Positions 3,841 to 28,593 of a DNA stretch of 32,000 nt are shown here, piece after piece. The stretch lies in NCBI GenBank assembly GCA_036703965.1, contig DATNQP010000442.1, positions 2,247-34,246 on the forward strand, in the 5' to 3' direction. A model generated the notes under the pieces. It did not search any database. It saw only the letters and a list, made by a program, of their open reading frames with translations, and had not been told where the DNA came from. Made by a program: the position numbers and the translations under genes. This DNA is from Leptolyngbyaceae cyanobacterium (lineage in GTDB: Bacteria; Cyanobacteriota; Cyanobacteriia; Cyanobacteriales; Coleofasciculaceae). Each line of letters opens with the position of its first letter. The first letter of the stretch is position 1.

Positions 3841-3869
3841 TGAATAACATTGTTTATTTATATTGTCAA
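3841..3869 (-). promoter_or_regulatory. Probable tracrRNA promoter
   Basis: On the minus strand: TTGACA (3869-3864), 17-nt spacer, TATTCA (3846-3841). This predicts a start near 3834, just before the conserved AGCGCC block. Confidence 0.45.
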
Positions 3870-3887
3870 GGTTCAGGAAAGGTTTAC

Positions 3888-5816: not shown

Positions 5817-5955
5817 GACTTGGGAAAACTAAGAGAGTAAAATTCGAGAAGGTGAATGAAAACAGGTGTACTACATAACCCCAGACAAAAACAGTTGTTC
5901 TAATTACAGGGAAAGCGATTGCCTCTGGCACCGCCCTTTGGGGCGATCGCGGTTT

Positions 5956-7797: not shown

Positions 7798-7929
7798 GCC
7801 CTTGTTCGTGCTAAAGGTTGGCAGCAGCAACGGAGTACTTCTAACTACCCTAAAACGTTCTTGTGTGACCAAGTGAGGCATGAATCGAATTCCTCTCAAT
7901 CTGATAGGTTTTTGTTAAGTTTGTTTAAA

Positions 7930-11345: not shown

Positions 11346-12176
11346 ATGACAATTGAATGTATCCAAAACCAGTTCCCGGAGCAAGATGCACGCTTAGCAC
11401 CGTCATACGGTGTAGAGGTCAATCAATTTCATACCCGACTGCTTCGTATGTCTCTGGCTACGGAGGAAAGCCGTGCTTATTGGGAAAACCTCCAGGTGGA
11501 GATTCCTAAAGATAAGCGGGTGGTTGTGGCTTTTGAGGAGCGCTGGTTTGGTAACAAAAGCATGGCTCGCGTTGAGACTATTCTTAAGAACTTTGCCTAC
11601 AGATTTGATGCGTACCCAGTAGCATTAGAGGTTTTGCAACGTTGGTGTCCGAGCAACCCAACGACCCGCCAAAATATTTGTCACTGGCATCTACAATTAT
11701 CCGATCCTATTTACCGCAGCTTTTCAGGTATCTTTTTGGAGCAAAGACGGCTGCACCCCGAACCCACGCTCGATCGGGATGTAGTCGTTCGCTGGGTATC
11801 TGGACAACTTAATAACCAATGGTCATCAGCTACAACAATTCGCATGGCTACCGCTTTGATGACCTGTGCTACTACGGCTGGACTTTGTTCTGATAACCCT
11901 GGCACGCGCCGTCTGGCGTATCCCAAAGTTACGGATGAGGCACTGGCTTACTGGCTCTATTTTCTCCGCTATTTATCGTTTGAAGGGTCGTTATTAAACA
12001 ATCCTTATTTGGCTTCTGTGGGCTTAAGTGAGAGTTTCCTCGAACAGCGCCTGCTTCGTTTACCCGGACTGTCTTTTAAACGCATGGGCGACTTGCAAGA
12101 TATGGGGTGGCAATACCCCGATTTGAAGTCTTGGGCAATTCACTGTCTTGGACTCAATTGGGAGGATGGGAAATGA
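11346..12176 (+). CDS. brxA: BREX protein BrxA (DUF1819 family)
   Basis: 276 aa, in the conserved position before brxB and brxC. Its stop overlaps the brxB start. Confidence 0.65.
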   Translation: MTIECIQNQFPEQDARLAPSYGVEVNQFHTRLLRMSLATEESRAYWENLQVEIPKDKRVVVAFEERWFGNKSMARVETILKNFAYRFDAYPVALEVLQRWCPSNPTTRQNICHWHLQLSDPIYRSFSGIFLEQRRLHPEPTLDRDVVVRWVSGQLNNQWSSATTIRMATALMTCATTAGLCSDNPGTRRLAYPKVTDEALAYWLYFLRYLSFEGSLLNNPYLASVGLSESFLEQRLLRLPGLSFKRMGDLQDMGWQYPDLKSWAIHCLGLNWEDGK

Positions 12177-12814
12177 CCACTTCTCTGGGACCGTTGTTTG
12201 ACAAAACCTTTCCGGTAGTGCAGGCACTCCGCAATGACCTGTTAGCTGAGGGGGGTCCCCAGATCAGTACCATGCGAAACTATCGTTTTGCCATCTTACT
12301 CTACGATCCGGGGGCTGAGTTTAAACTGCGATCGCAGATTCGCCGTCTGAGTGATGAACTCAAAGGACTAGGATGGAACATTTTATCCATTTCACTCCAA
12401 TCCCTGTTGCTGGAGCGACTCAAGAAGGAAGATCGGCGCGTCATTGATAGCATTATCCGTACTGAACGCCGTTTCTATGACCGAAATCCAGACCGTGCCT
12501 TAAACCATTTAAAAGACAAAATTGCACCCCACATTGAAGGCGCTGGCGGCATTGCTAAGGACGTTATTGCTCTGATTGATGAGTTTGCCGACAAACATCC
12601 TGCTGATATCAATCGAACTGTAATTTTTGTGGGGCGGACAGGTGCTTTATATCCATTCTTTCACTCGTCATCGCTGCTGAAGCATATTGACGGGAAAACC
12701 CGCAATCTGCCTGTTGTTTTGCTCTATCCAGGCAAGCGACATGATGGCAATGCGCTTTCGTTTATGGGAGAAATTCCCCCAGACCGAGACTACCGACCGA
12801 GGATTTATTCGTGA
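12173..12814 (+). CDS. brxB: BREX protein BrxB (DUF1788 family)
   Basis: The ATG at 12173 overlaps the brxA stop (ATGA). The track ORF starting at 12107 is an upstream extension inside brxA. Called from size and position before brxC. Confidence 0.65.
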   Translation: MTTSLGPLFDKTFPVVQALRNDLLAEGGPQISTMRNYRFAILLYDPGAEFKLRSQIRRLSDELKGLGWNILSISLQSLLLERLKKEDRRVIDSIIRTERRFYDRNPDRALNHLKDKIAPHIEGAGGIAKDVIALIDEFADKHPADINRTVIFVGRTGALYPFFHSSSLLKHIDGKTRNLPVVLLYPGKRHDGNALSFMGEIPPDRDYRPRIYS

Positions 12815-12851: not shown

Positions 12852-15800
12852 ATGCTAGTCAAAGAGGTCTTTGCTGCGGATGTCACCCGCGACATTGCTC
12901 CTGTAATTTACTTCCACGAGCAGGAGCCTGCCAAGGTTCTAGCAGAGGTCTCTGAGTATATCATCACAGGGGGATATCCAGAAACAGACCCGCGCCATCG
13001 TCGTATTCAATCGGGAATCCACGAGCAGTTTGTGAGATTGCTTTTGTCGTTGGCAGCAGAATTGCGAAAACCACAAGGGACTGAGCTTCCGGCTGTGTGG
13101 ATTTCTGGCTTTTATGGATCGGGGAAGTCTAGTTTCGCCAAGCTGTTAGGTTTGGCACTCGATGGCGTAACTTTACCCGATCGCCGCACGGTTGCCGAAG
13201 CTCTTCTCGCTAGAGATGACTCGCCAAAGGCAAAGGAATTCAGAGAAGCGTGGGAGGAAGTCCGCCGTCAAATCGATCCGATCGCAGTCGTTTTCGATAT
13301 TGGCGCAGTCGCTAGGGATGACGAACATATTCACTCCGCCGTGAAGCGGCAAGTGCAAGCGCGTCTGGGGTACTGTCCCAACAGCTATGTGGCTAACTTC
13401 GAGTTGAAGTTGGAACTTGACGGTAAGTGGGATGAATTTTTGGCTCAGGCTCAAAAAACGCTCTCGCAACCTTGGTTAGAACTCAAAGACAGCCAACTGG
13501 CGGACGAAGATTTTTCTCTAGTCATGCACGAAATGTACCCAGATCGGTACACCGATCCGATGACTTGGTATGACAGCCATATTGCTTCCCAAGACCAAAG
13601 TGGTTCCTCGGTGGCAGAAACAACCAAAGCGATCGCGGCAATGCTGCGACATCGCGCTGCTGGCAAAACCTTATTTTTGGTGGTCGATGAGGTGAGCCAG
13701 TATATCTATCAAAATGACAACCGAATGCTCAAGTTACAGTCCTTTGTAGCTGACCTCGGTCAAAAGCTCAAGAGTACAGTTTGGCTGTTTGCTACCGGAC
13801 AACAAAAGCTTGAAGACAGCGACGATGAGAGCAATATTGGCAAACTGAAAGACCGCTTTCCTCCCAAACTTCGCGTTCACCTCGACCCTGCCAATATCCG
13901 AGATGTCGTTCACAAACGGCTGTTGAAAAAGTCAGCGACTAAAGAACCCCAACTGCGATCGCTTTTTGGTCAGCACCGCAGCGACCTCAAACTCTACGGC
14001 TATTCCTGCGATTCCATCACGGAAGAAGACTTCCTTGAAGTTTACCCGATGCTGCCAGGGTATGTTGATCTGCTGATGCAAATTACGTCTAATTTGCGAG
14101 TCCGTTCGACGCGCACTAAGGGTGATGATTATGCGATTCGAGGATTGTTACAACTGTTGGGGGAACTGTTCAGAACCCAGAATTTGGGAGAGCAGGAACT
14201 GGGAGCATTAGTGACTTTAGATAGCATCTTTGAGGTGCAACAATCGGCATTAGATGCCGATATGCAAAATACCCTCTCTCGTGTCTTTTCTCATCCAGAG
14301 GTTGCCAGTGACGACATGGCAATCAAGGTAACTAAGGTTGTATCGCTGTTGGAATTAATTCAAGAACAGCAACCCACTACAACTAAGTTCATCAGTCAGT
14401 GCCTCTACGAGCAGTTAGGGAGGGGGAATAATGAAGCCATTGTTCAGCAGGCATTAGATAAACTGCGCGATTTAGGATTTATTTCTTATTCAGACAAGCT
14501 CGGCTATAAAATTCAAAGTTCCGCAGGGCAAGAATGGCAACGCGAACGAGAAGAGCATAGTGTACCCGATGATGACATTAGTCTAATTGTTAGCGAAAAA
14601 GTTAAGGACTTATTGGGAACTGTAGAGAACCCCTCTTATAAAGGCAAAAAGTTTAGGTGGACTGCTTTTTACACTGACAACCGTCAGCGCAAGGATGAAC
14701 GGTTACAGAAAGTCACCGATCTAGATGTGATTGCAGTTGATTTCCGTTATTTAACCAAAACTGAAGATCGCGATACAACAACCTGGGTGCAAACCAGCGA
14801 CAGCCCACTGCTGCGAAATCGCCTACTTTGGGTTGTAGGGACGCCTGCTGAAGTGAAATCCCTTGTTAGAGAATTGGCGCGTTCCCGGCACATTCTTAAT
14901 CGCTATGGCTCGCGCTTACAGTCCATTTCTAAAGATAAACAACGCCTGTATTTCGAGGAACAAAGTCGCTGTGAGGAGCTAGAAAAACAAGCCAAAGATG
15001 CGATTACTAAAGCATTTATGGATGGGGAACTTTACTTCCGAGGTAGGCAAATTGACAAGCGAGAACACGGGACATCCTTTGCTACTGTGCTGCATCGCGT
15101 TGGTGAGAGTATTCTTCCCGACCTTTACAACCAATATGTCGATATTGCGATTACACCTACTGAATTGGCGCAATTGCTCGAACCCACGTTATCGGGACCC
15201 TCTTCTAAGTTCATGCAGCAAGGATTGGGGATTCTTGAACTCGATGCAGGTAAGTACGTCCCCACTTGCAACGGTCAAGTTCCCAGCCGGATTTTGCAAT
15301 ACATTACGGATTACAATGGAGCATCGACGGTCAGTATAGTAAACGATTTCGGTGGTCCCCCTTATGGCTATTCCGCAGACGCAATTAAGGCGTGTTTAGT
15401 GGGACTACTTCGGGCTAGTAAAATTCGCATTCGACCGGAGTCTGGAGCAGAAATTACCTCGATCCGCGATCCGGGGACTAAAGATATTTTCCAGAAAGAC
15501 CGCGATTTCAAGCGTTCTGATATTCTCCCAGAAAGCGGTCAAGGAATTAGTGCGCGAGACCGAAATAAAATCTGTAAGTTCTTCAAAGACTATTTACAGG
15601 TTGACCTCGATCGCGAGAACGATGCGATCGCAGATGAGGTGTTCAACTGGTTCCCAGGTCGGGCTAAAGTGCTGCAAGAATTGGAGAAGCAGTATAGTCG
15701 GCTGCCCAATCGTCCCGAACTGCCCGATTCGCTCCTTAAGCTGCGAACTGCCTTAGAAGACTGTATGCGATCGCGCCAAGTCGAGGCTACAGTGCTAGCG

Positions 15801-16481
15801 GTCAAGAAAAATTTGGATGCCCTTAGTGATGGACTTGAAAAAATGGGCATTTTCTCTTCAGAACTAACGGAGGAAACGGTTCAAGCGGTGAGGAAGGCTG
15901 GGGAGATTCAAGATCATCAAGTGGCACAACTCAAGGAAATTGGGCGAGTCGCTGAAGTTAGTGAGGCTGTGAATGCTCTAGAAGAACAGCTTAATCTGGA
16001 ACGCCCTTGGCGCGATATCAGCAGTATTGAGACGCATCTGCAAGCCATCTGCGAACACTATAAAGCCGTGCGTCTGGAACTGATAAACCGTCAAGAGAAG
16101 CAAGCTGAGGAAGTTCAGGAACAGATTAAGCGGCGACAAGGCTTTAACAGAGTGAGTGCAGATAAAGCACTGTATGTTGTTCGTCCCATTCAAAAGGCAC
16201 GCTATGACACAACTGAGGATTCGTTGTATCCCTCTTTAATTCAGTTGCGAGATACAGCGTTGCTCAAGCTTCAAGAAGCAGCACAGGAGGCAAATGACAA
16301 TCTTGACAACCTGCTATCCCAGGATGAGCAGGTACAGGTACAGGTGGTGCAACTGGCACTCATCGACAGTTTGAGAAACCGCGAGGTGAGTACGGAACAA
16401 GAGGTGGAGGCGTTGGTGAACGAGTTACGCGATCGCTTGCTGGCACAGCTTAAGGAAAATACTCGCATCCGTATTATTTAA
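12852..16481 (+). CDS. brxC: BREX ATPase BrxC/PglY
   Basis: 1209 aa. Walker A GFYGSGKSSFAKLLG and Walker B-like LFLVVDEVSQY. Size, N-terminal region and a long coiled C-terminal part are typical of BrxC. Confidence 0.85.
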   Translation: MLVKEVFAADVTRDIAPVIYFHEQEPAKVLAEVSEYIITGGYPETDPRHRRIQSGIHEQFVRLLLSLAAELRKPQGTELPAVWISGFYGSGKSSFAKLLGLALDGVTLPDRRTVAEALLARDDSPKAKEFREAWEEVRRQIDPIAVVFDIGAVARDDEHIHSAVKRQVQARLGYCPNSYVANFELKLELDGKWDEFLAQAQKTLSQPWLELKDSQLADEDFSLVMHEMYPDRYTDPMTWYDSHIASQDQSGSSVAETTKAIAAMLRHRAAGKTLFLVVDEVSQYIYQNDNRMLKLQSFVADLGQKLKSTVWLFATGQQKLEDSDDESNIGKLKDRFPPKLRVHLDPANIRDVVHKRLLKKSATKEPQLRSLFGQHRSDLKLYGYSCDSITEEDFLEVYPMLPGYVDLLMQITSNLRVRSTRTKGDDYAIRGLLQLLGELFRTQNLGEQELGALVTLDSIFEVQQSALDADMQNTLSRVFSHPEVASDDMAIKVTKVVSLLELIQEQQPTTTKFISQCLYEQLGRGNNEAIVQQALDKLRDLGFISYSDKLGYKIQSSAGQEWQREREEHSVPDDDISLIVSEKVKDLLGTVENPSYKGKKFRWTAFYTDNRQRKDERLQKVTDLDVIAVDFRYLTKTEDRDTTTWVQTSDSPLLRNRLLWVVGTPAEVKSLVRELARSRHILNRYGSRLQSISKDKQRLYFEEQSRCEELEKQAKDAITKAFMDGELYFRGRQIDKREHGTSFATVLHRVGESILPDLYNQYVDIAITPTELAQLLEPTLSGPSSKFMQQGLGILELDAGKYVPTCNGQVPSRILQYITDYNGASTVSIVNDFGGPPYGYSADAIKACLVGLLRASKIRIRPESGAEITSIRDPGTKDIFQKDRDFKRSDILPESGQGISARDRNKICKFFKDYLQVDLDRENDAIADEVFNWFPGRAKVLQELEKQYSRLPNRPELPDSLLKLRTALEDCMRSRQVEATVLAVKKNLDALSDGLEKMGIFSSELTEETVQAVRKAGEIQDHQVAQLKEIGRVAEVSEAVNALEEQLNLERPWRDISSIETHLQAICEHYKAVRLELINRQEKQAEEVQEQIKRRQGFNRVSADKALYVVRPIQKARYDTTEDSLYPSLIQLRDTALLKLQEAAQEANDNLDNLLSQDEQVQVQVVQLALIDSLRNREVSTEQEVEALVNELRDRLLAQLKENTRIRII

Positions 16482-16506
16482 CCCGATCGCCATTACTTTT
16501 GATTTG

Positions 16507-19500
16507 ATGAAAACGAACTACCTAACTCCAGAAGCCAAATTTAAACTCTCCAATACAGTTCGGGAACTGTGCGTTAGCCTGCTTAGGGATATTCACAATG
16601 CGGCAGATAGCGTCTATCGCCTGTCTATTCCCTTGAGTAAGGCGGGGTTGGCTGAGGAGCAACGGATTAAACGGGAGCGTTTGGAAAAATGGCTCGACGA
16701 GCAGGCGCGGAGTGAGGCGAGGGGGAAAAAGGAAACTAGAGAACAGGCAAATGCTCGTTATCGCTTGCAGGCGGAGAAGTTGGCGGCGGCAACGTTTTTA
16801 AACCGGATTGTCGTCATCAAGCAGATGGAAGCAATGGGGTTAATTAAACCTGCGGTGTTGACGGGAGGTTGGCAGAGTCCAGCTTATCGGGAGTTTCGGG
16901 AGTTTGCCCCGGATTTGCTTAAGGATGAAACCGAAGGGTTTGGGACGCTGTTGCAGTTACTCTATGACGAATTGGCGCTGGATTTGCCGGGGTTGTTTGG
17001 GGATGTGGGGGTAACGTCGCTGTTTCCCATTCCAGCGAGTACGTTACGGGCAACGATTGAGGTATTGGACAATCCAGAGCTAAAAACGGCTTGGTTGGAT
17101 GATACGACATTGGGGTGGGTGTATCAGTATTGGAATGACCCGGAACGGGAAGAACTGGATAAAAAGCTGAATGCTGGGGGCAAGGTGGAACCTCATGAGG
17201 TTGCCAGCAAGACGCAGATGTTTACCGAACGCTACATGGTGGAGTGGTTGCTGCACAACAGCTTAGGGCAGATGTGGCTGGCAATTTGTGAGAAGCAGGG
17301 ATGGACGGCGGAAGTACAGGCAGACGGAACGCTCGATCGCTTGGAAGAACGACGCAAAGTTTGGCGAGAGAAGCGGGAGAAGGGGGAGGTTGCCCTTGAT
17401 GCATTGATGCCGATCAAGTCGGAGGCTGAGGAACGCTGGAAATATTGGGTGCCACAACCGTTAACCGATGCCGCAGTTGCCCATGCACCCAAAAGTATTT
17501 GGGATATAAAGCTCCTCGATCCGGCGTGTGGGTCGGGGCATTTTCTAGTGATTGCATTTGGGTTATTGTTTGCGCTGTATCAGGAGGAAGCGCGGCATCG
17601 GGGTGAGGAGTGGAGCGACAAGGAAATTGTTGAATCTATTCTGTCTAACAACTTGTACGGGGTGGATATTGATGCGCGATCGGTTCAGATAGCAGCAGCA
17701 GCGTTGTTGTTGAAGGCGAAGTCGCTGTGTCGGGATGCAGAACTAAAGGCTGTAAATTTGGTTGCGTCTGACCTCAATTTGTCGGCGTTACCAGAGAATG
17801 ACCCGGCATTGGTAGAGCTTCGACAGCAAGTGACAGAAGCAACGGGTATCCCGGAAGAGTTGACGAATCAGATTGTGCAGGCATTGAAGGGGGCAGATCA
17901 GTGGGGTAGTCTGCTGAAGATCGATCGCGAAGTGGAGAAAGCGATCGCCTACTACGAGCAGACCCTTGCCCGTCCGGTTCAAGGGAATTTGTTTGCCCAG
18001 GAGTCCGCTCTCAATCCTCGACCTCCCATACCTGCCTCCCCTAACCGCAAAGACATTCTTCTCGAAAAACTAGAACAGTTTCTCAGCCGTCGTACCAGTG
18101 GGGATGATTTGGGTTTGCGCTTGCGGGGAGAACAGTTAACGGCTGGAGTCCGGTTTATTCGGCTGATTCGAGAGAATGCCTATGATGTTGTGGTTGGAAA
18201 TCCGCCCTATCAAGGTGCTAGCAAAATGGATGATGCGAAATATTTGGTTAGGCATTACTCCAAAGGCAAAGCAGATCTATTTGCAGCCTTCTTGGAAAGA
18301 GGTTTAGAACTGGTCAAGCCAGGAGGCAACTCGGCGCTGTTAACCATGCGAAACTGGATGTTTCTTAACCAGTATTCAGAGATTCGGGAGTATTTGCTTG
18401 ATAATTTTGATTTGCGCGTATTAGGAGATTTAGATCAAGCTGCTTTTGAGGATGTGACAAACTCAGAAGTTTTGACCGTTGTTATGAGTGTGTTTGTAAA
18501 AAATCGACCAATTGAAAAAATCAGTGTAGCTCTACGATGGGTTCAAGTTGATGAGGGGGTCTATGACAGAGGACGGACGAGACGTAAGATAGCAGCCTTT
18601 CTAACACAAGCAAAGCGATTTGAATTTCATAGCGATCGCTTTGATGTGATTAAGGAGAAGCCGCTCATTTATTGGTGGGATGATGAATTTCTCAATACTT
18701 ATAGTGATACTCCTAAACTAGGTGAATTATCGGAAGTAAGAGCGGGTTTGAATACCAGCAGTAATGAGCGGTATATTCGCTTAATTTGGGAAGTAGATCC
18801 CAAAAATGTCTTCTTAAACAAAGAATTTACGTTAAATCGCTGGAATTCATTCTTTTCCTGGGTACCAACTGTTATGGGTGCAAAGGGAAAAAGATGGCTA
18901 GCTCCCCTACTTAATGTTGTTCTTTGGAAGTTTAACGGACTCGAAATGAAAGTGATGCATGAAAACCGATGGGGAAGCCATAGTAAGCGAGTCCAAAACG
19001 AATCAAAGTACTTCGTCCGGGGTGTTGCCTTCCCAAAAATTAGTTCTGAATTCGTTGCTAGAGCATATACATTCACAAGCATCTTTAATGATGCTGCACC
19101 ATCAGTATTTCCAAATGATATAGCTGGTGTTACTTGTTTGCTTAATAGCACTCTGGCACGCGATGTAATGAGAGCGCTAAATCCGACCGTAAATTTCCAA
19201 GTCGGAGACGTAAACCGTCTCCCCCTCTTCCCTATCGAATCTGCTGATGAAATCTTCACCAAACTAGACGTAGCATTTACCGAACACGAAGCCGCCCGTG
19301 AAACCTCAGTCGAATTCAAAAAACCCGGACGTTCCGCTTGGAACTATGCCCAAGACTGGGCGCAACGTGCCGTAGATCGAGAACCCGGAACCCCCCTCCC
19401 CGACTATCAACCCATCTACGAAGATCCACCCCCTACTAACTTTGTCTCCTATGCAATCGGCGTTGCCCTTGGGCGCTTTGGTGCAAATGGTGGAGGCATC

Positions 19501-20523
19501 CTCAACGAAGCACCCAAGAATGCCCTCCCCAACGGCATCCTCTACCTCTCCACCTACTCCGAAAAAGACAGCCTCCAACACCCCGCCTACCAAATCATTA
19601 AAGACGCATGGACAGAACACAGCAACGCTATTACCAAAAACACCCCCTTGAAAAAATGGCTGCGCGAGTCCTTCTTCAAAGACGTACACCTGGGAATGTA
19701 TGAAAGCCGCCCCATCTACTTCCCTCTCTCCTCCGCCAAGAAAAACTTTGTTGCCTTCGTCAGCATTCATCGCTGGCAAGACAACACCCTGCAAACTCTC
19801 CTCGCTGACTACCTCTACCCCGAACTCAACACCATTGAAGGCGAACTCAGCGACTTAATAGACGCCCGCCACCAGGGTGATAAAAAGGACAGAGCAAAAG
19901 CTGAAAAATGCTACAGCGAAGTCCAGAAACTCTACGAAGAACTCAAAACTTTTTGCGATAAAGTCAGTCAGTGCGCCGAACAGGGACCGCCCCCCGCTAA
20001 CCCCAAAGATACCCGCCGAGAAGCTGATGCCCGTTTCCAAATGGATCTCGATGACGGCGTAATGATAAATAGTGCCGCCCTCTGGTCACTCCTCGAACCC
20101 CAGTGGACAAAACCAAAAACTTGGTGGTCAGAACTGTGCAACGCCCAAGGCAAAAAAGACTACGACTGGGCGCACCTCGCCGCCCGTTACTTCCCCAAAC
20201 GGGTCGATGAAAAATGTCAAAAAGATCCCTCCCTCGCTGTTGCCCACGGCTGTTTTTGGAAATACCATCCCGCCAAAGCCTATGCCTGGGAACTGCGCCT
20301 GCAAGACGAAATTAGTCCCGACTTTACCATTGAAGAAAACTCCGATGCACTCCGCCAGGAATTTGAAGAAAAGCATCCTCAACTGGTAGAGGACTTAATT
20401 GAAGCGGAAGACAAGCGCCGAGAACGCAAGCGCAAGAAAGAAGAGGACTCAGAAGCTTATGGTCCTCTCTTTGATTCTGAAAGCACTGATGAAAGTATTA
20501 CACAGGAAATTCTTGAGGATTAG
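16507..20523 (+). CDS. pglX: BREX N6-adenine DNA methyltransferase PglX
   Basis: SAM-binding motif I LLDPACGSGHFL and catalytic motif IV VVGNPPYQG. About 1338 aa. The ATG at 16507 is preferred over the TTG at 16504. Confidence 0.9.
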   Translation: MKTNYLTPEAKFKLSNTVRELCVSLLRDIHNAADSVYRLSIPLSKAGLAEEQRIKRERLEKWLDEQARSEARGKKETREQANARYRLQAEKLAAATFLNRIVVIKQMEAMGLIKPAVLTGGWQSPAYREFREFAPDLLKDETEGFGTLLQLLYDELALDLPGLFGDVGVTSLFPIPASTLRATIEVLDNPELKTAWLDDTTLGWVYQYWNDPEREELDKKLNAGGKVEPHEVASKTQMFTERYMVEWLLHNSLGQMWLAICEKQGWTAEVQADGTLDRLEERRKVWREKREKGEVALDALMPIKSEAEERWKYWVPQPLTDAAVAHAPKSIWDIKLLDPACGSGHFLVIAFGLLFALYQEEARHRGEEWSDKEIVESILSNNLYGVDIDARSVQIAAAALLLKAKSLCRDAELKAVNLVASDLNLSALPENDPALVELRQQVTEATGIPEELTNQIVQALKGADQWGSLLKIDREVEKAIAYYEQTLARPVQGNLFAQESALNPRPPIPASPNRKDILLEKLEQFLSRRTSGDDLGLRLRGEQLTAGVRFIRLIRENAYDVVVGNPPYQGASKMDDAKYLVRHYSKGKADLFAAFLERGLELVKPGGNSALLTMRNWMFLNQYSEIREYLLDNFDLRVLGDLDQAAFEDVTNSEVLTVVMSVFVKNRPIEKISVALRWVQVDEGVYDRGRTRRKIAAFLTQAKRFEFHSDRFDVIKEKPLIYWWDDEFLNTYSDTPKLGELSEVRAGLNTSSNERYIRLIWEVDPKNVFLNKEFTLNRWNSFFSWVPTVMGAKGKRWLAPLLNVVLWKFNGLEMKVMHENRWGSHSKRVQNESKYFVRGVAFPKISSEFVARAYTFTSIFNDAAPSVFPNDIAGVTCLLNSTLARDVMRALNPTVNFQVGDVNRLPLFPIESADEIFTKLDVAFTEHEAARETSVEFKKPGRSAWNYAQDWAQRAVDREPGTPLPDYQPIYEDPPPTNFVSYAIGVALGRFGANGGGILNEAPKNALPNGILYLSTYSEKDSLQHPAYQIIKDAWTEHSNAITKNTPLKKWLRESFFKDVHLGMYESRPIYFPLSSAKKNFVAFVSIHRWQDNTLQTLLADYLYPELNTIEGELSDLIDARHQGDKKDRAKAEKCYSEVQKLYEELKTFCDKVSQCAEQGPPPANPKDTRREADARFQMDLDDGVMINSAALWSLLEPQWTKPKTWWSELCNAQGKKDYDWAHLAARYFPKRVDEKCQKDPSLAVAHGCFWKYHPAKAYAWELRLQDEISPDFTIEENSDALRQEFEEKHPQLVEDLIEAEDKRRERKRKKEEDSEAYGPLFDSESTDESITQEILED

Positions 20524-20525: not shown

Positions 20526-21656
20526 ATGAGTCCGATGATAGGTGAAGACGACCTTCTTGAGAGACGCTACATCAATAAATTTCGTGCATTAATTGAACCA
20601 TTTGGTGAATTTATTAAATATGAATACGATCGAGCTGCTATAGATCTTGGATTACACCTTACTGAATCTTCCACAACAAAAGAAGGGACAGAAATAGAAA
20701 ATGTTTCTAATACGAGAGTATGGTTTCAATTAAAAGGGTTACATAAAAATACATTAAGCAGAGAGCAGTACGAAAAGAAAGAATTCGTTAGTTATCCAAT
20801 AAGAGTAGACCAAGTTAAGTTTTGGTATGCCTCGCCTGAACCAATCTATTTTACTATTTATATTGAATCAGTAGATGTATTTTTGTCCGAGGACATTAGA
20901 GATATTGTTGATAAAAACTGGGGAGAAGCAATTCTAAATCCAGCAACCCTTGGTGAGCAGGAAAAGGTAAGTCTAAGATTAGAGAAAGATTCGGTACTTA
21001 CGGAAGAACGTGTCAGAGACATGATCAGACATCGCTCTCTACGAATTGATGGACCATCTTTTCGTGGACGACCGTTAGGGCATAGATTAGACCCTTTAAG
21101 ATGTTCTCTAGAGCAAATGGAACCAGCAGTATTCCATGCGGTAGTAATGCGACTTTTAGAGGAGCATGGATATGAAATTGAAGAAACCATTGCTCCGAAG
21201 AGTCTTTTTCCAGATGGCTCAGATGATGTTGCTGTTCTTTTGTATGGAACTTTACATTTTACTTACGAATGGGTTTATCAACTGACAACACAATTTGCAC
21301 CTGATAGCAGTGGCTTCAGTATAGAAGGTTCTCCTTGCACTGCTCAAGGTAAATGTGCGGTTTTGATACATAGTAAAGTTTCAAATTATCCTCATCTAGA
21401 AGCTAGTAAAGAGATGATTGAGGTAATAAAAAATAAAGGGATAGAGCATTTTCTGGTTTTCACAAACTTGGAAATTCTGGATAAAGTAGAGTATGTTTCT
21501 CCTTTTGTTTCAGCTCAAAACGCAACCAATTTCAATGTAGGTATATTACCACAAGGATTAAGTGAATTAGCTTTTTCTATTTTAGTAGCAACGCTTGTTT
21601 ATTTGGATTTTAGAGACAAGATTTCATTCAAAATAGTTAATTATTTATGGTCGTGA
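20526..21656 (+). CDS. DUF4365-like (PD-(D/E)xK nuclease fold) protein with an uncharacterised C-terminal domain, embedded in the BREX operon
   Basis: 376 aa. The N-terminal part fits the DUF4365 pattern: LLERRY..., AIDLGLHL, then about 29 residues later VWFQLKGL, then VKFWYASPEPIYFTIYIE. The ATG is 2 nt after the pglX stop, with GAGGA 8 nt upstream. Composition is strongly AT-shifted and there are no HIP1 sites. Confidence 0.5.
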   Translation: MSPMIGEDDLLERRYINKFRALIEPFGEFIKYEYDRAAIDLGLHLTESSTTKEGTEIENVSNTRVWFQLKGLHKNTLSREQYEKKEFVSYPIRVDQVKFWYASPEPIYFTIYIESVDVFLSEDIRDIVDKNWGEAILNPATLGEQEKVSLRLEKDSVLTEERVRDMIRHRSLRIDGPSFRGRPLGHRLDPLRCSLEQMEPAVFHAVVMRLLEEHGYEIEETIAPKSLFPDGSDDVAVLLYGTLHFTYEWVYQLTTQFAPDSSGFSIEGSPCTAQGKCAVLIHSKVSNYPHLEASKEMIEVIKNKGIEHFLVFTNLEILDKVEYVSPFVSAQNATNFNVGILPQGLSELAFSILVATLVYLDFRDKISFKIVNYLWS

Positions 21657-21717
21657 CTCTTCAACTTAAACTCAAATACTATTCTTCAACATTTAACTAG
21701 CCTTTCCAAGTCAAGCC

Positions 21718-24615
21718 ATGAATCAACTAGGTTCCATCACTAATGTTTTAGAAGAAGAACTGAAGCGGGAACTGCGCCACCACGGAACTGTCATCTGGCT
21801 GGATAAAGACGGGCATTACACCCCCTACGTTGACCAACTGGCGGAACGTCACGCCCAAGGGGATTTCTTTGCCCCTGTCATTCCCTTCCGAGGCAGTTAC
21901 CTGGAGATGATGCTTGCCCTAGAGAACTACGGTAATGGACTCGATCCCGAACGTCTCCTCATCCACATGCCGGGTCATACCGATAAGACAATCCATAAAA
22001 CCCCGATGCTGGAACTCTATCAGGCAGGCAAGCGCTTTCGCAAAGCACTGACAACCCTCATCCGCGAAGCTGCCAGCGGTCGCGTGGGACCAGCAGAAAT
22101 CGAAAATTATCTCAGTCGTGAAGTATCCGACCTTGCCAGTGCCGAAGAATGGCTGCAAGGGGCAATGTCCCAGCCTAAAGAAGGACTGGCAGGCGAACTA
22201 AAAAACTTTAAACCTGAAGAACTCCTGAATAGACTGCTAATTCAAGATAAAGACTTAGAATCTAAGGTTATTGACGAAGCGGCTCTCAACACCCTGATAG
22301 ACTATTTCTACCGCCACACGGGAATAGACCGTGCCTTTGTTGACTTTTTCCTCAGTGGCGAACGCTTATCCTACCAAAATCTCGGCAATGCCTTAGTTGG
22401 GTGGCTGATGTGCGTCGAATACGTCCACGACCTCCATCGCCCTCCTCATCTCGACGAACTAAAACCCCTCTCTCGTCTCTCCAAACCTCTACAGGACACT
22501 TGCGATCGCCTCATCGCATACCTGCGCCAACAACACGAGCAAACCTATATTGAACAGTCAGATTATACCGAGTCCCGCCTGCAACGGGAACTCGACGCCA
22601 TGACTCCGGAAGACTTAGGACAGCTCGACACGTTCCGATGGGAAGAGATTAGAGTTTTAGAAAGTGCAGTCCAAGCACTCCTTGCCGCTAACTGGGAAAA
22701 AGCCCTCAACTGGGCAACCTCGCGCACCGAAACCGAATCATTTTGGTTGCAACGCGATCGCGCCCGTCAGTTAGTTTGGTCGTTGGTACGCGACGGGGCA
22801 ACCCTCGGTCAGGCATTGAAAAATGCAGGTCGTCCTCTGAAAAACCTGCACAGCCTCAGAGAAGTACTTGACTATTACACCGAAATAGGCTACCAAATCG
22901 ATAAACTTCACCGCCACTTCGAGCAGCAACGGTTTAAGCTTCTAGAAACTACCCTACCCCACTATGCCGAGCTTCGAGAAGCGGCTACCCAACTTCGCAA
23001 ACACTACCGCGTATGGGCAGATACCCTCGCTGAAGACTTTGCCAAAATCTGTACTTCAGAGGGGTTTCTTCCCGATAAAGACTTACAGCAGCGCACCCTC
23101 TACGACCAAGTGGTGCATCCTCTAACTCAGGGGAATCACCAAGTTGCCTACTTTATCATCGATGCCTTCCGCTACGAAATGGCAACCGAACTGTTACCGG
23201 AATTTGCCGGAACGGGAACAACCGTTCACTTACAAGCTCGTTACTGCGAACTTCCCACTATTACTGCCATTGGCATGAACGCCCTAGCTCCCGTTCACCA
23301 GTCTGGGCGACTCGTCCTCGCAGGCAGTAAAGATTTTAATGGCTTTAAAACAGGGGAATACACCGTGCGAACCCCCGCTGAGCGCGTTCGGGCAATGGAA
23401 GAAAAAAGCGTTAATAATCGCAGTAAAGGACGCCAGAAGCCACGACCCGTTAAACTATCTGAGGTTTGTAATTGGTCAACCACCAGCCTAAAAAAAAGCT
23501 GCGCTGGGGCAGAGCTAATTGTCGTTCACAGCCAAGAAATTGACGATGCGGGGGAAGCCAATATCGGACTGGCAACCTTTGAAACCTGGCTGCAACAAAT
23601 CAAATCCGCTTGGAATCATCTTAAGAGTATTGGCATTAAAGAGTTTGTGTTTACTGCCGATCACGGCTTTTTACTTCAAGACGAAACAACCAAAGAAATT
23701 TCGTATGGCACTAACCCCAAACGCCGCTACGTCCGGAGGGACGAACAACGCCTAGAGGACGGTATGGTGGCAGTCTCCCTGAGTGCCCTCAACTATGAGG
23801 GACAAGACGGCTACCTGCTCTTTCGTAAAGACACAGCCGTTTTTGACACGGGCAATCGTGGCGCAACCTTTGTCCACGGTGGCAATAGCCTGCAAGAGCG
23901 GGTGATTCCCGTGTTAACCGTTTCCCAGCGCCTGCCAACCAGTACAGGGGTAGCCAAGTACATTATTGAAGCCGAGGTCAAATCAGAGGTACTGACCTAT
24001 AGCCGCATTGCGTTGCGAGTTAAACCCGCTCCTATGGCGCTCGGTGGGTTAACCTTTGTCGGAGCCGATACCGTGACTCTGGCATTGCGCGTCCGCGATC
24101 TGCGCTTCGCAGCAGCGCTTCGCTATCGCTCTGATATCCAAGTTACGATTAGAGACGCACCGGGGATAGAGGTGAAAAATCAGCAACTTCTCCTCAAGGT
24201 CGAAGGAGACTGGGCTGAAGTCTTCTTCGATTTGAAAGGCGATCGCGATGAGCGGGTACGTGTCGAGGTTTTTCATCCTGACGCGATCGAGGATATTGAC
24301 CCCATTACCCTGCCTGCCTACTTCAACGTCTCTGGCTCGTCCGCAGGCGAGACGACTCCAACCAAAGAAGCGGCAACGGAAGCAGTACGCGAGACAGACT
24401 GGAAGGAAAGTTTTGAAGACCCTGCTATCATGAATGTCTTCTTACACCTGCAACAGCACGGTTCTCTCACTGAGGAGGAGTTGAGCCAAATGCTCGGAAA
24501 TCCCCGACAGGCAAGGCGTTTTTCCAGAGATTTCGAGCAATACGTCGAAAAAGTTCCCTTCTCCGTCAGGATTGAAACAACGAGCAGTGGTAAACGTTAT
24601 GTGAAACAAAACTAG
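21718..24615 (+). CDS. pglZ: BREX alkaline-phosphatase-superfamily protein PglZ
   Basis: 965 aa. It has a PglZ-type core (YFIIDAFRYEMATEL ... FVFTADHGF ... HGGNSLQERVIP). It sits after pglX and before brxD. Confidence 0.85.
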   Translation: MNQLGSITNVLEEELKRELRHHGTVIWLDKDGHYTPYVDQLAERHAQGDFFAPVIPFRGSYLEMMLALENYGNGLDPERLLIHMPGHTDKTIHKTPMLELYQAGKRFRKALTTLIREAASGRVGPAEIENYLSREVSDLASAEEWLQGAMSQPKEGLAGELKNFKPEELLNRLLIQDKDLESKVIDEAALNTLIDYFYRHTGIDRAFVDFFLSGERLSYQNLGNALVGWLMCVEYVHDLHRPPHLDELKPLSRLSKPLQDTCDRLIAYLRQQHEQTYIEQSDYTESRLQRELDAMTPEDLGQLDTFRWEEIRVLESAVQALLAANWEKALNWATSRTETESFWLQRDRARQLVWSLVRDGATLGQALKNAGRPLKNLHSLREVLDYYTEIGYQIDKLHRHFEQQRFKLLETTLPHYAELREAATQLRKHYRVWADTLAEDFAKICTSEGFLPDKDLQQRTLYDQVVHPLTQGNHQVAYFIIDAFRYEMATELLPEFAGTGTTVHLQARYCELPTITAIGMNALAPVHQSGRLVLAGSKDFNGFKTGEYTVRTPAERVRAMEEKSVNNRSKGRQKPRPVKLSEVCNWSTTSLKKSCAGAELIVVHSQEIDDAGEANIGLATFETWLQQIKSAWNHLKSIGIKEFVFTADHGFLLQDETTKEISYGTNPKRRYVRRDEQRLEDGMVAVSLSALNYEGQDGYLLFRKDTAVFDTGNRGATFVHGGNSLQERVIPVLTVSQRLPTSTGVAKYIIEAEVKSEVLTYSRIALRVKPAPMALGGLTFVGADTVTLALRVRDLRFAAALRYRSDIQVTIRDAPGIEVKNQQLLLKVEGDWAEVFFDLKGDRDERVRVEVFHPDAIEDIDPITLPAYFNVSGSSAGETTPTKEAATEAVRETDWKESFEDPAIMNVFLHLQQHGSLTEEELSQMLGNPRQARRFSRDFEQYVEKVPFSVRIETTSSGKRYVKQN

Positions 24616-24646: not shown

Positions 24647-25966
24647 ATGGGCATGAGTGAGCGAGACCTCGATCATATTTTTGAGCGTTTGCGATCGGGG
24701 GTAGTCCCCGAACGGGGTTTGGAAACATTTGCTGTTGGAATTGAGAAACAACGAGCAGAAATTCACCGACAACTCAAACTCGCTACTAATGGAGAAGGGG
24801 TATTTAAGTTCCTCCGGGGCGGTTACGGCTGCGGTAAAACCTTCATGTGCCGACTTGCGCTCAGTGATGCCCAAGCTCAAGGATTTGCTACCAGCTTTGT
24901 CGTCGTTTCCGAGAATGACCTCTACTTCCACAAGTTTGATGATGTTTACCGCAAAGTTGTGCAAGAACTTGCCACCAGTTCCTGTCCCAGAGGCGCTCTA
25001 GCAGATATTCTCGACCGTTGGATTGCCAAAGTTGAAGATGCCCTAATTGCCGCAGGCGCTGATGAAGACAGTGCTGAGTTTGATGACAAAGTGGCAAAGC
25101 GCATGGAAGAAGAACTCGCCTCTTTGACTGGAGGAAAAGCGCCTGAAGATATGGCTCGCGTTCTTCGTACTATTTTTGACCTCAAGCAAAAAGGTCAATT
25201 TGCAGAAGCCAGCGCTCTACTCTCCTGGCTCTCCGGCAGTGAAAATGTCGCCGCCAGCGCTAAGAAAGTCGCCGGAATTAAAGGGGATATCGGCAGCCGC
25301 GAAGCTCTAGACTATCTCCAAGGCATTGTCGAAATCATCAAAGCGGCTGGCTATGAAGGCTTAGTGATTGTGATCGATGAAGTCGAGACAATCCTGCGAA
25401 TGCGCCGAGATATCCGCGAGAAATCCCTCAACGGGATTCGCCAAATCTGCGATGCTGCCGATCGCTACAAGGGACTGCTCTGGATTTTCACGGGAACCCC
25501 AGACTTTTTCGACACTAAGCGCGGTGTTGCCGGACTACAGCCTCTGCACGATCGCATCCAGTTCTTAACACACGGCGGTTTCGCTAACCCGCGCCAATCG
25601 CAGCTAGAACTCAAACCATTTGATGCCCCACGTCTCAAAGAAGTTGCGCTCAAGTTATTGGACAGATATCCTACCACTGACCCAGTTCGGCTAGCGAGTA
25701 AACTCAGTTCAAAATTTATCGAGCGACTGATTGCTAAAGTCACGGCAGGTTTTAAGGGTGATGTAGGCGTCGTGCCACGGCAGTTCCTACGCCATTTTGT
25801 TGATGTCCTCGATCTGGCTGACGAAAACGATGATTTCGATCCGATGAAAGCTGAGGGGTTTGAGCCAGACAAGCTCACTGAAGACGAGCGGCGCATTTGG
25901 GAAGGTCGCGAACCCTTCGATCCAGAACCCGAAGATATTAAAGGTTACGAAGCCGTCGTATTCTAA
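24647..25966 (+). CDS. brxD: BREX ATPase BrxD
   Basis: 439 aa. Walker A GGYGCGKTF and Walker B LVIVIDEVE. It sits between pglZ and the Lhr-like helicase, as in BREX types 2 and 6. Confidence 0.8.
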   Translation: MGMSERDLDHIFERLRSGVVPERGLETFAVGIEKQRAEIHRQLKLATNGEGVFKFLRGGYGCGKTFMCRLALSDAQAQGFATSFVVVSENDLYFHKFDDVYRKVVQELATSSCPRGALADILDRWIAKVEDALIAAGADEDSAEFDDKVAKRMEEELASLTGGKAPEDMARVLRTIFDLKQKGQFAEASALLSWLSGSENVAASAKKVAGIKGDIGSREALDYLQGIVEIIKAAGYEGLVIVIDEVETILRMRRDIREKSLNGIRQICDAADRYKGLLWIFTGTPDFFDTKRGVAGLQPLHDRIQFLTHGGFANPRQSQLELKPFDAPRLKEVALKLLDRYPTTDPVRLASKLSSKFIERLIAKVTAGFKGDVGVVPRQFLRHFVDVLDLADENDDFDPMKAEGFEPDKLTEDERRIWEGREPFDPEPEDIKGYEAVVF

Positions 25967-25968: not shown

Positions 25969-28077
25969 ATGACATCTGCCTTTGCTCGGTTCCCCCCGCG
26001 CCTCCAGGAAGCGATCGTCTCCCGCTTGGGATGGTCGTCACTACGTCTTGTTCAAGAGTTTGCAAGCCATGCGCTGTTAGATGGGAAGAATGCGGTCATT
26101 TTAGCCCCTACTGCTGGAGGGAAAACGGAGGCAGCAATCTTTCCCCTGCTAGCAAGGTTAATGGAGAAGGAACCAGAGGGAGTCGGACTCATCTACATCG
26201 CTCCAATTAAGGCACTGTTGAACAACCAGGCAGAACGCTTGGCTACCTACACGGAAATGGTAGGACTCAGGCGTTTTGTATGGCATGGAGACATTAAAGA
26301 CTCCCAGAAGCGTTCTTTTATCAAAGAACCCGCTCAGGTTTTAATGACTACGCCGGAGTCGCTGGAGGTGATGCTGCTCTCTCCAAAAGTCCCCCACACC
26401 GAACTTTTTGGAGACGTTCGCGCCCTAATTATTGATGAAATTCACGCACTGGCTGGCACAGACCGAGGCGCACACCTGATGTCTGTTTTTGAACGACTGA
26501 TTCGTTATACCAAGAATGACATTCAGCGCATCGGACTGAGTGCCACGGTTGGGAACCCCATCGATATTCTCCGCTGGCTTCAGGGAACCTCACGGCGCGA
26601 TGGGTGTGTGGTAGACCCGCCAAAAGTTCCTTCAAAAAAAGACTTGCGAATTTACCTGCGGGACACTGTGGGTGCGATCGCTGGTGATGCGAGCAAGATG
26701 GCGTTTGGTCGAAAAAGTCTGTTCTTCTGCCAAAGCCGTTCGCTGACCGAAAGTATCGCCGAGCGTATTCGCGATCGCGGAACGGACGTATTTGTACATC
26801 ACAGTTCCGTATCCTTTGAAGAACGCGCTGCGGCAGAGGAGCGCTTTCACAGAGGCACCAATGTCAGCATTATCTGCACTTCCACGCTAGAACTGGGAAT
26901 TGATGTCGGCGACCTCGACCTTGTATTTCAGGCTAATGCGCCTTCTACTGTCTCATCATTTCTACAGCGCTTGGGTCGAACGGGTCGCCGCGAAGGTCAG
27001 CAGGCTAACACTACATTCTTCTGCGAGAACCTTGAAGTTGTACTGCAAGCGATCGCGATTATCGAGCTAGCCAGAAAAGGTTGGGTAGAATCAGTTCCCC
27101 CTCAAAATCGAGTGTGGTCAGTACTCGTACACCAGCTTTTTGCGCTCACACTACAGTTCGGTGCAATTAGCCCGGAGCGCTGCTGGGAGCAATTATCCGT
27201 TGTCCCTGATTTTTCAGGTATCAACTCGACTGAATTTGAGAGACTGCTCGAACACCTGATTGCAGAGAACTTCCTCTTCATCTCAGGGGGTCTGTTATCA
27301 ATGGGAGAAAAGGCTGAAAAAATTTTCGGTCGCAAGAATTTCATGGAACTCTACGCCGTCTTCAGCAGCCCACTACTCTACAAGGTCATGACTGAAGCTG
27401 GCTACGTCGTCGGCTCTTTAGAGCAGACGTTTGTGGATAAACTCGTAACAGAAATGAGTTCCTTCCTCCTTGGCGGTAGAGCTTGGACGGTCATTCACAT
27501 CAATTACAAAGAGCGCATCGTCCGTGTTGTTCCAGCACCGGGAGGTAAGAAGCCAACCTGGGGTGGCTTTGCCCCACAGCTATTGAGCTTCGAGATTTGT
27601 CAGCAAATTGCCAATATCCTTAAATCTGACAATCCCATCCCTTATATCGACACAACGGCACAAACAGCTCTTGACGAATACAGAACAGACCTCGGTTCAT
27701 TACTCAGCCGTTCCGATCGCAGTATTAAAATAGAGCCTGACCGCGCACTGTGGTGGACGTTTGCAGGTGGACAAATTAATCACACCCTCAAGTACGGAAT
27801 TCAGTTCCAGGAAGATTGGAAAATCGTTTGTGATAACTTCGGACTAAAAATAGAGGGAAGCAAACTCAACCCGAAATCTCTGTATGCAGCGATCGCGAAA
27901 ATGAGTACTGATGACTTCTGGAGCGATTCGTCGTCAAAGCACTTCATTAGGGCACAACTACCAGAGTATCGGCTTTCCAAGTTCCAGATAGCGCTGCCAG
28001 ACGACTATTGTTCGGAGATGATTAGCGACTACCTACTAGACATTCCAGGGGCAGTCCGATTTTTACAGAGAGCCTAA
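25969..28077 (+). CDS. brxHI: BREX Lhr-like DEAH helicase BrxHI
   Basis: 702 aa. Helicase motifs I (APTAGGKTEAA), II (LIIDEIH), III (SAT) and VI (QRLGRTGRR). The start is 2 nt after the brxD stop. Confidence 0.85.
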   Translation: MTSAFARFPPRLQEAIVSRLGWSSLRLVQEFASHALLDGKNAVILAPTAGGKTEAAIFPLLARLMEKEPEGVGLIYIAPIKALLNNQAERLATYTEMVGLRRFVWHGDIKDSQKRSFIKEPAQVLMTTPESLEVMLLSPKVPHTELFGDVRALIIDEIHALAGTDRGAHLMSVFERLIRYTKNDIQRIGLSATVGNPIDILRWLQGTSRRDGCVVDPPKVPSKKDLRIYLRDTVGAIAGDASKMAFGRKSLFFCQSRSLTESIAERIRDRGTDVFVHHSSVSFEERAAAEERFHRGTNVSIICTSTLELGIDVGDLDLVFQANAPSTVSSFLQRLGRTGRREGQQANTTFFCENLEVVLQAIAIIELARKGWVESVPPQNRVWSVLVHQLFALTLQFGAISPERCWEQLSVVPDFSGINSTEFERLLEHLIAENFLFISGGLLSMGEKAEKIFGRKNFMELYAVFSSPLLYKVMTEAGYVVGSLEQTFVDKLVTEMSSFLLGGRAWTVIHINYKERIVRVVPAPGGKKPTWGGFAPQLLSFEICQQIANILKSDNPIPYIDTTAQTALDEYRTDLGSLLSRSDRSIKIEPDRALWWTFAGGQINHTLKYGIQFQEDWKIVCDNFGLKIEGSKLNPKSLYAAIAKMSTDDFWSDSSSKHFIRAQLPEYRLSKFQIALPDDYCSEMISDYLLDIPGAVRFLQRA

Positions 28078-28164: not shown

Positions 28165-28593
28165 ATGGCATACTGGCTGTTTCAAGGCAATCCCAAATAC
28201 TACCGCGTCCTTGATGGCATCCGAGACTTTGAACAGATGCCTTGGTTGGTGACTCGCTACGGAAAAGACATTGCTCCTGGTGATGGTGTTCTGGTGTGGG
28301 TTTCTGGGAAAGAAGCAGGGATTTATGCGATCGCAAAAGTCACAGAACCCGCTCAGGTTATCACCAAGCTACCAGACGGCAAATACTGGGCAGACCCCAA
28401 CCGCACTACAGGGAAACAGCAAGCCATCATTGAATTTACCAGCAAACTTCTAGACAAGCCCCTGCTGAAAACAGATTTAGTCAAAGACCCTATTCTCAAC
28501 AACTTGCTAGTCATTCGCGCTCCCAATAGCACCAACTTCAAAATCACAGCAGAACAGTGGAAACGGGTACAGGAGTTATTAGATGTTGAATAG
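28165..28593 (+). CDS. Stand-alone EVE (PUA-like) domain protein
   Basis: 142 aa. The N-terminal segment reads YWLFQGNPKYY...W...GDGVLVWVSGKEAGIYAIAKVTEPA, which is the typical EVE signature. It is on the same strand, 87 nt after brxHI. Confidence 0.75.
   Translation: MAYWLFQGNPKYYRVLDGIRDFEQMPWLVTRYGKDIAPGDGVLVWVSGKEAGIYAIAKVTEPAQVITKLPDGKYWADPNRTTGKQQAIIEFTSKLLDKPLLKTDLVKDPILNNLLVIRAPNSTNFKITAEQWKRVQELLDVE

Follow-up and report, generated by a model that had tools for sequence, protein, structure and literature searches.

ORF376, a predicted DUF4365/DREN-type nuclease between pglX and pglZ of a cyanobacterial BREX-6 operon, as a candidate single-protein defence gene

A stretch of 32,000 nucleotides from a Leptolyngbyaceae cyanobacterium (assembly GCA_036703965.1, contig DATNQP010000442.1, positions 2,247 to 34,246 of the forward strand; this whole stretch is called the window) contains an intact type 6 bacteriophage exclusion (BREX-6) operon on the plus strand, and an open reading frame (ORF) of 376 aa, ORF376, is lodged between its genes pglX and pglZ. 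ORF376 extends over 20526..21656 of the plus strand, with its ATG at 20526 and its stop codon ending at 21656, and encodes a two-domain protein. An identical entry exists at NCBI as HEY9797040.1, named "DUF4365 domain-containing protein", from a Leptolyngbyaceae cyanobacterium metagenome-assembled genome. The reading favoured here, which is given an even chance of being correct, is that ORF376 would be an autonomous sensor-effector defence nuclease made of one protein and carried as optional cargo on the BREX-6 transcript.

The N-terminal domain (residues 1-170; 20526..21035) is a member of the DUF4365/DREN restriction-endonuclease fold of the PD-(D/E)xK type, and nuclease activity is predicted for it. 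Against a gathering threshold of 24.3 bits for PF14280 (DUF4365), full ORF376 scored 22.9 bits, slightly under the threshold, and the N-domain alone 25.5-25.8 bits, above it; the model was matched by 17 of 20 family N-domains, with a best E of 1.8e-8. AlphaFold2, supplied with the family alignment, gave a confident two-domain model with a mean predicted local distance difference test (pLDDT) score of 86. Foldseek comparison of this model with the PDB returned SPARDA DREN-APAZ chains as all of its top 15 matches (E down to 3e-7, prob 1.0), in alignments of about 160-170 columns at a root-mean-square deviation of about 5 Å, and a weak match was also found to I-Ssp6803I, a cyanobacterial PD-(D/E)xK homing endonuclease. 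The DUF4365 assignment made in an earlier sequence-only reading of this DNA was thus borne out by the profile search and by structure comparison.

In an alignment of 52 sequences, E12, Y15, D35, D40, W66, Q68, K70, G71, W100 and E105 were found invariant in the N-terminal half. D40, the predicted catalytic Asp (codon GAT, 20643..20645, plus strand), lies in the model at the start of strand beta2, which is the canonical PD position in the PD-(D/E)xK fold, and the QxK motif is encoded by the Q68-L69-K70 codons (CAA TTA AAA, 20727..20735, plus strand). The same reading had named D39 with Q68 and K70 as the residues to mutate; Q68 and K70 stand, but the conserved residue of the Asp position is D40. 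DUF4365 corresponds to the nuclease called DREN in SPARDA, and in NbaSPARDA the DREN domain requires D41, Q60 and K62; on its own, DREN is an inactive monomer, and only tetramerisation turns it into a collateral DNase (PMC12205087). Residues of the DxGxD...QxK pattern are also required for the toxicity of EAT16, a toxin of an extracellular contractile injection system (eCIS) (PMC11297309).

The most conserved segment of the family, H169-R192 (HxSxRIDGPxFRGRPLGHRLDPLR; 21030..21101, plus strand), connects the nuclease domain to the C-terminal module and contributes its 3' part, FRGxxLGHxxDPxR, to the latter. This block is also the least confident part of the model (pLDDT 51-64). Behind it lies a family-specific alpha/beta domain (residues 193-376; 21102..21653, plus strand), a putative sensor or oligomerisation module, in which further positions are invariant in the 52-sequence alignment; modelled separately, residues 190-376 reached a pLDDT of 91 and a predicted template modelling score of 0.88. 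Its best fold matches are weak, with RPB5-type jaw domains (E 1.8e-3) ahead of the threonyl-tRNA synthetase editing domain, RNase H-like proteins and EcoT38I, and Mrr_cat was weakly matched by the opening helix and strands of 6 of 29 family C-domains (best E 4e-4). Based on the weak Mrr_cat matches and the weak matches to RPB5 jaw and EcoT38I folds, the C-domain is probably a very divergent restriction-endonuclease-like alpha/beta fold devoid of canonical catalytic residues. No sign that the domain is a duplicate of the N-domain could be detected, and it is not APAZ, as its model has no SPARDA or SPARTA match. A profile search with the C-domain retrieved only 152 representatives among 1.84 billion cluster representatives, and in full-length matches the domain sits, with few exceptions, at residues ~182-370 behind DUF4365. 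In one homologue (P0008), residues 238-330 weakly match the PADLOC candidate-system protein PDC-M26B (E 3.8e-4, model positions 439-530 of 857), which is possibly a larger candidate defence protein containing a remote relative of the C-module.

The modularity of the family was revealed by reciprocal domain swaps. In two proteins (P0199, 347 aa and complete; P0173, 541 aa) a TIR_2 domain (E ~1e-18) precedes the same linker and C-domain, and a third, P0186, is a fragment of this TIR_2-linker-C-domain type. A further protein, P0191, has an Mrr_cat nuclease, scoring above the gathering threshold, in the effector position before the C-module. The FRGxxLGHxxDPxR linker is therefore kept behind TIR and Mrr effectors as well, and the core residues common to all module variants are G181, L184-G185-H186, D189-P190-x-R192, L211, G241, G275, H282, N314, T356 and Y359. 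Furthermore, the TIR and Mrr parts match the PADLOC defence models PDC-S66, ThsB, SPARTA Aga-TIR and Lamassu LmuA. The reverse swap is represented by WP_011241866.1, a protein of 367 aa in which the same N-domain subfamily (E 1e-50) is joined to an unrelated C-terminal half. Two-way exchange of a toxic enzymatic head and a tail without catalytic function is the hallmark of immune proteins of the sensor-effector type, and TIR effectors need assembly for activity. Since DREN needs tetramerisation (PMC12205087), both alternative heads, DREN and TIR, would be gated by oligomerisation. The gene for WP_011241866.1 (locus L081, 5995-7098) belongs to an integrase/AlpA island of the Ruegeria pomeroyi DSS-3 megaplasmid NC_006569.1 and is followed by genes for an AAA ATPase and an ATP-binding protein; this locus may represent a separate system of several genes that uses the same nuclease head. 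Another homologue, P0097 (615 aa, truncated at a contig end), is extended at its N-terminus by 340 aa that contain an HNH-like Cys/His motif, and is either a true triple fusion or a gene-calling read-through.

The family was searched for among 5.8 billion proteins, and at least 422 homologues were found, nearly all of 365-390 aa and alignable end to end. Free-standing loci (n=39) come from Cyanobacteria, Actinomycetota, Acidobacteriota, Chloroflexota, Myxococcota, Alphaproteobacteria and Dormiibacterota, and no BREX gene lies within 10 kb of any of them. Neither a conserved neighbour within 3 kb nor an antitoxin candidate was detected in the 32 free-standing loci tested, and the family was not found in phage and IMG/VR collections. 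Some copies are in evident mobile or defence islands: AAA_15/21 ATPases, a PIN gene and an integrase lie near the family gene in locus L009 and an integrase adjoins it in L076. Other free-standing copies sit amid housekeeping genes beside toxin-antitoxin (TA) modules. Because most family members are free-standing and BREX-free, an obligate triggering by BREX, which the sequence-only reading had offered among its functional possibilities, is unlikely.

Only the closest relatives form a BREX-embedded clade, namely L078 (86% identity), L074/L075 (73%) and L001/L002 (67%), all between pglX and pglZ of BREX-6, and from 61% identity downwards the relatives lie outside BREX. Loci L078 and L074 share the identical 2-nt spacing behind pglX and a downstream spacer of ~62 nt, and L001 has the same junction with wider spacing. 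The gene has diverged along with its neighbours in L001 (67%, versus 69% for PglX, 63% for PglZ and 67% for BrxC) and in L078 (86% versus 88% for PglX), with a mild incongruence in L074 (73% versus 57-58% for the BREX neighbours). ORF376 is under purifying selection relative to the BREX-embedded orthologues, with dN/dS of 0.08-0.24 and synonymous sites that are saturated (dS 1.7-2.3). No BREX-specific sequence feature setting this clade apart was found in the 52-sequence alignment.

That ORF376 is an accessory gene was tested by a PglZ-based metagenome scan, which yielded 32 BREX-6 loci, 22 of them with a resolved pglX-pglZ junction. None of the 22 carries ORF376, in agreement with the accessory status suggested from the sequence; a role as core BREX-6 component was rejected on this count, and the NCBIfam BREX models were also unmatched by the protein. 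In eight loci the junction is empty, with 1-10 nt from the pglX stop to the pglZ ATG and a Shine-Dalgarno sequence within the pglX tail, as in L042, GGAGAGGATTAAATCATGAGT. The other 14 junctions hold unrelated cargo of 0.4-2.3 kb, including DUF6119 (L065), TPR proteins (L068, L070), an Xre-type pair (L052, L053), PIN with DUF29 (L050), DUF29 (L046), XisH with XisI (L055, L061) and PIN TA pairs (L047, L048). The pglX-pglZ junction is thus a cargo insertion hotspot at which ORF376 is optional. Published surveys agree with this (PMC11341690, PMC12839542): of 9,000 pglX-pglZ pairs about 7,000 have intervening genes, which are mostly unclassified, and among the known ones BrxU and PARIS are the most frequent (PMC11341690). 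In L054, where the end of pglX is off the contig, an AAA_15/AAA_21 ATPase lies upstream of pglZ; extra DNA was also seen between brxC and pglX in L053, and an enlarged pglX span in L050.

The position of ORF376 within the operon was as described in the sequence-only reading. The pglX stop codon, TAG, occupies 20521-20523, and the ORF376 ATG follows 2 nt downstream; its own GAGGA Shine-Dalgarno sequence (20515..20519, plus strand) lies within the 3' end of pglX, 6 nt upstream of that ATG. An AT-rich spacer of 61 nt (21657..21717, plus strand), with a near-identical counterpart in L078, separates ORF376 from pglZ. No terminator-like site was found on the plus strand between ORF376 and pglZ, and promoter-like matches occur at chance level (4 found versus 3.7 expected). 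When the window was compared with the empty junctions of L042, L043 and L059, the equivalent of the empty-site coupling sequence, TTGAGGATTAGATATGAGT, was seen to initiate ORF376 now. This comparison indicates that ORF376 captured the ancestral pglX-to-pglZ coupling signal, while pglZ was pushed behind the AT-rich spacer.

The base composition of ORF376 is distinctive, with a G+C content of 0.360 and a third-position G+C content (GC3) of 0.241, versus a GC3 of 0.47-0.52 in all eight BREX genes. It is the G+C minimum of the whole 32 kb (z = -5.6 versus all non-overlapping 1131-nt windows), and earlier hand counts of 60-nt lines (19/60 and 19/60 inside the gene, 33/60 in pglX) were exact. The absence of the highly iterated palindrome HIP1 (GCGATCGC) from the gene, which had been taken as a further sign of foreignness, was verified, but it has no statistical weight, since 1.31 sites are expected in ORF376 and P(0) = 0.27. 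HIP1 itself is strongly enriched across the window (37 sites versus 0.5 expected); BrxE, BrxA and BrxD are likewise HIP1-free, and a longer HIP1-free gap exists at 1756-5943. The family gene is poorer in G+C than its surroundings in 37 of 40 loci, and the BREX-embedded orthologues hold their GC3 at 0.23-0.34 versus 0.43-0.53 in the flanks. Because the low GC3 persists despite saturated dS and co-divergence with BREX, the AT-rich composition is a maintained property and not the scar of a recent insertion. The foreign composition noted from the sequence is therefore no sign of a recent splice-in, given orthologues that co-diverged with PglX and PglZ to 67% identity. AT-richness might be maintained because rare codons throttle a toxic protein, or through repeated cassette exchange from an AT-rich pool. 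Within pglX, a G+C dip at 18304-19200 (0.38-0.42), with a GC-skew sign flip at ~19200, may mark the exchange of a target-recognition segment in the methyltransferase, and the final ~120 nt of pglX (20404-20523) are also AT-rich (0.39).

Among described systems, the DREN-APAZ proteins of SPARDA (PDB 9qcc, 9jt2, 9jsz, 9vx6) are the nearest, sharing with ORF376 the DUF4365/DREN domain, the best fold match and the QxK motif, as well as an effector placed N-terminal to a regulatory module and an overall length of ~380-420 aa. The alternation of DREN and TIR on the C-module of ORF376 furthermore parallels that between SPARDA and SPARTA. In SPARDA, however, the C-terminal part is APAZ, for which the ORF376 C-domain shows no match, and of the 430 positions in the TIR-APAZ PADLOC model only 14-129 are matched by the TIR variant P0199. 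No PIWI/Ago gene was found in the window, among the called genes of L001-L009, or in the 32 free-standing loci whose neighbours were compared. As APAZ and Argonaute are both absent, ORF376 is not a SPARDA component, and it is probably guide-independent.

A precedent for autonomous DUF4365 defence fusions is Divona, a single gene of a Vibrio cholerae integron cassette located near integrases, in which DUF4365 is joined to crr6 (PF08847) and for which anti-phage activity was validated (bioRxiv 10.1101/2024.07.02.601686). Like ORF376, it is a single polypeptide with N-terminal DUF4365 fused to another domain; ORF376 is set apart by Divona's domain description, since no crr6 match was found for ORF376 at E <= 10 or among 29 family C-domains at E <= 1. 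EAT16 likewise has an N-terminal DUF4365 domain and demonstrates that this domain is a bona fide toxic nuclease (PMC11297309), but it is secreted eCIS cargo with a different C-terminal domain and with DxGxD in place of D-x4-D.

BrxU (GmrSD) and PARIS (AriAB) resemble ORF376 in being lodged as accessory genes at the pglX-pglZ junction. In type 1 BREX they are independent defence genes, co-transcribed with BREX and dispensable for methylation, and form a layered defence (PMC11341690). Their proteins (DUF262/HNH for BrxU; an OLD-ABC ATPase with TOPRIM for PARIS) are unrelated to ORF376, in which neither a DUF262 (ParB-like) nor a DUF1524/HNH match was found in Pfam or PADLOC, and they belong to enterobacterial BREX-1, whereas ORF376 belongs to cyanobacterial BREX-6. 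A comparative study of 2026 described "auxiliary/backup" nucleases, chiefly PD-(D/E)XK restriction endonucleases, in core BREX loci of at least 4,363 taxa (PMC12839542). ORF376 fits the category of its section 35, a standalone restriction endonuclease or one with a sensory module inside the core BREX operon, and neither DUF4365 nor the C-terminal module of ORF376 is mentioned in that survey. The functional integration with PglZ that the study proposes finds no support in the ORF376 family, which is mostly BREX-independent. ORF376 matched no family in PADLOC v2, NCBIfam or PHROG. The concept of accessory nucleases and other defence genes embedded in BREX is known and already published (PMC11341690; PMC12839542); the family, its C-module and its effector swapping are undescribed in PADLOC v2, NCBIfam, PHROGs and the searchable literature.

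Three other explanations were weighed against the autonomous sensor-effector nuclease. A restriction endonuclease that is modification-dependent (type IV-like) or directed to DNA in some other way would bind a feature of foreign DNA through its degenerate restriction-endonuclease-like C-domain and cut directly with its N-domain, complementing BREX as GmrSD/BrxU do and involving no abortive infection. A single autonomous gene with no immunity partner, the two restriction-endonuclease-like domains suggested by the weak Mrr_cat, EcoT38I and RPB5-jaw matches, and the Arg/Gly-rich linker would all suit such an enzyme, and pairings of BREX with type IV enzymes are the most frequent ones in print (PMC11341690). 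This explanation is nevertheless judged unlikely. It is weakened by the variants in which this C-module is joined to TIR domains, since DNA is not cut by these; moreover, no known modified-base reader resembling the C-domain was found in structure and profile searches, the island is already equipped with a GmrSD-type layer by virtue of the GmrSD_N gene at 5956-7899, and the DRENs characterised so far are non-specific collateral enzymes (PMC12205087).

A second-layer effector integrated with BREX in the embedded clade would be triggered by a BREX event such as PglZ nicking or a stalled complex, or by anti-BREX proteins, for example a DNA mimic of the Ocr type or an S-adenosylmethionine lyase. 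Backup nucleases and the sensing of Ocr by PARIS have been proposed in print (PMC12839542, PMC11341690), and the shared junction with its 2-nt coupling in L078 and L074 (wider in L001), the co-divergence with PglX, PglZ and BrxC, and the takeover of the pglX-to-pglZ coupling signal speak for this idea; it is made distinctly improbable by the BREX-free majority of the family, by the majority of BREX-6 loci that do without ORF376, by unrelated TA-type cargo at the same site in other loci, and by the lack of a BREX-specific feature in the alignment of the embedded clade. A selfish element, that is, a free-standing homing-endonuclease-like gene or addiction toxin that inserts in tight intergenic junctions and persists by its own nuclease with no benefit to the host, is very improbable. 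Vertical inheritance with purifying selection across saturated dS, free-standing insertion sites that share no target sequence or context, the failure to find the family in phage or viral collections or to find an antitoxin candidate, and TIR/Mrr effector swaps that make no sense for homing all oppose it, although the precise insertion between coupled genes, the AT-richness relative to the host in 37 of 40 loci, the sporadic distribution, the frequent TA-type cargo of the hotspot, and the weak fold match to I-Ssp6803I, which the DREN tetramer resembles (PMC12205087), would fit such an element.

The autonomous sensor-effector reading also has to accommodate several points that weigh against it. 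No sequence-level alignment of the family N-domain to SPARDA DREN was found, and the equivalence of the catalytic residues (D40, QxK) is inferred from the Pfam motif and the strand position in the model, not from superposition, because the Asp pair of ORF376 is spaced D35-x4-D40, one residue wider than DxGxD, and G42 is followed by H44. The C-domain model, in line with the earlier failure to recognise this part of the protein, has no match in the PDB or BFVD at E < 1e-3, and its putative sensor role is deduced from the logic of the domain swaps alone. The TIR and Mrr variants are scarce, amounting to four or five clusters mostly on short contigs. That the gene has co-diverged stably with BREX-6 in four loci is also compatible with a dependence on BREX in the embedded clade, and a constitutively encoded non-specific nuclease with no antitoxin would need tight autoinhibition.

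A mechanism is proposed for the autonomous sensor-effector nuclease, in which ORF376 would be translated from the BREX polycistronic mRNA through the Shine-Dalgarno sequence and coupling junction used for pglZ where the site is empty; by sharing this mRNA, BREX and the ORF376 nuclease would be co-expressed as two layers. Residues 1-170 would act as the DUF4365/DREN PD-(D/E)xK nuclease (E12, D35, D40, Q68-x-K70), held inactive in the resting state, and the LGHxxDPxR linker with the C-domain (residues ~179-376) as a trigger-sensing or oligomerisation module. An infection cue would cause self-association of the C-module, and the nuclease domains so assembled would degrade DNA, with abortive infection or direct restriction as the outcome. 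A bolder extension, put forward tentatively and thought rather doubtful, is that the linker and the ~185-aa C-domain are a hitherto unrecognised immune sensor or assembly module, which would gate at least three effectors (DREN, TIR, Mrr) in one polypeptide with no NTPase, Argonaute or cyclase partners, and which in the BREX-6 clade would watch for failure or inhibition of BREX.

The operon around ORF376 was identified with Pfam, PADLOC and NCBIfam, and all of its genes lie on the plus strand. BrxE (10759-11340; NF033448), BrxA (11346-12176), BrxB (12107-12814) and BrxC (12852-16481) precede the upstream neighbour pglX, the BREX-6 methyltransferase gene (16504..20523; NF033455, 2113 bits), while the downstream neighbour pglZ, the BREX-6 phosphatase gene (21718..24615; NF033443, 1060 bits), is followed by BrxD (24647-25966) and the Lhr-type helicase BrxHI (25969-28077). 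Directly 3' of brxHI lies an ORF of 142 aa with an EVE domain, a PUA-like reader of modified bases (28165-28593, plus strand), which possibly shares the operon. Just downstream of the BREX locus, on the minus strand (28754-31951), a NACHT NTPase is fused to long HEAT/PBS-lyase repeats in a protein of 1065 aa, a candidate bacterial NLR-like (bNACHT/Avs-like) immune sensor. Upstream of the operon, the GmrSD_N (DUF262) gene encodes a type IV restriction-like protein of 647 aa (5956-7899, minus strand) and is adjoined by a 642-aa ORF (3888-5816, minus strand) with no Pfam match; a tandem MazG pyrophosphohydrolase is encoded at 1010-1876 (minus strand), and a small ParG-like ribbon-helix-helix ORF at 8976-9440 (plus strand) may be a regulator or antitoxin.

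If true, the bolder reading of the linker and C-domain would establish both a minimal family of single-gene defence and a trigger-recognition fold that are new. If the autonomous sensor-effector reading is right, ORF376 would be a compact immune module of ~1.1 kb whose undescribed sensor domain has been recombined with three classic suicide or restriction effectors. The family, which PADLOC v2 misses, would then be added to defence catalogues, and it would offer a tractable system for studying how DREN is gated in a setting free of Argonaute filaments. The lasting AT-rich, rare-codon coding alongside BREX suggests that composition may throttle the expression of toxic effectors. For the cyanobacterial BREX-6 loci and the cargo hotspot between pglX and pglZ, ORF376 would provide the first functional handle.

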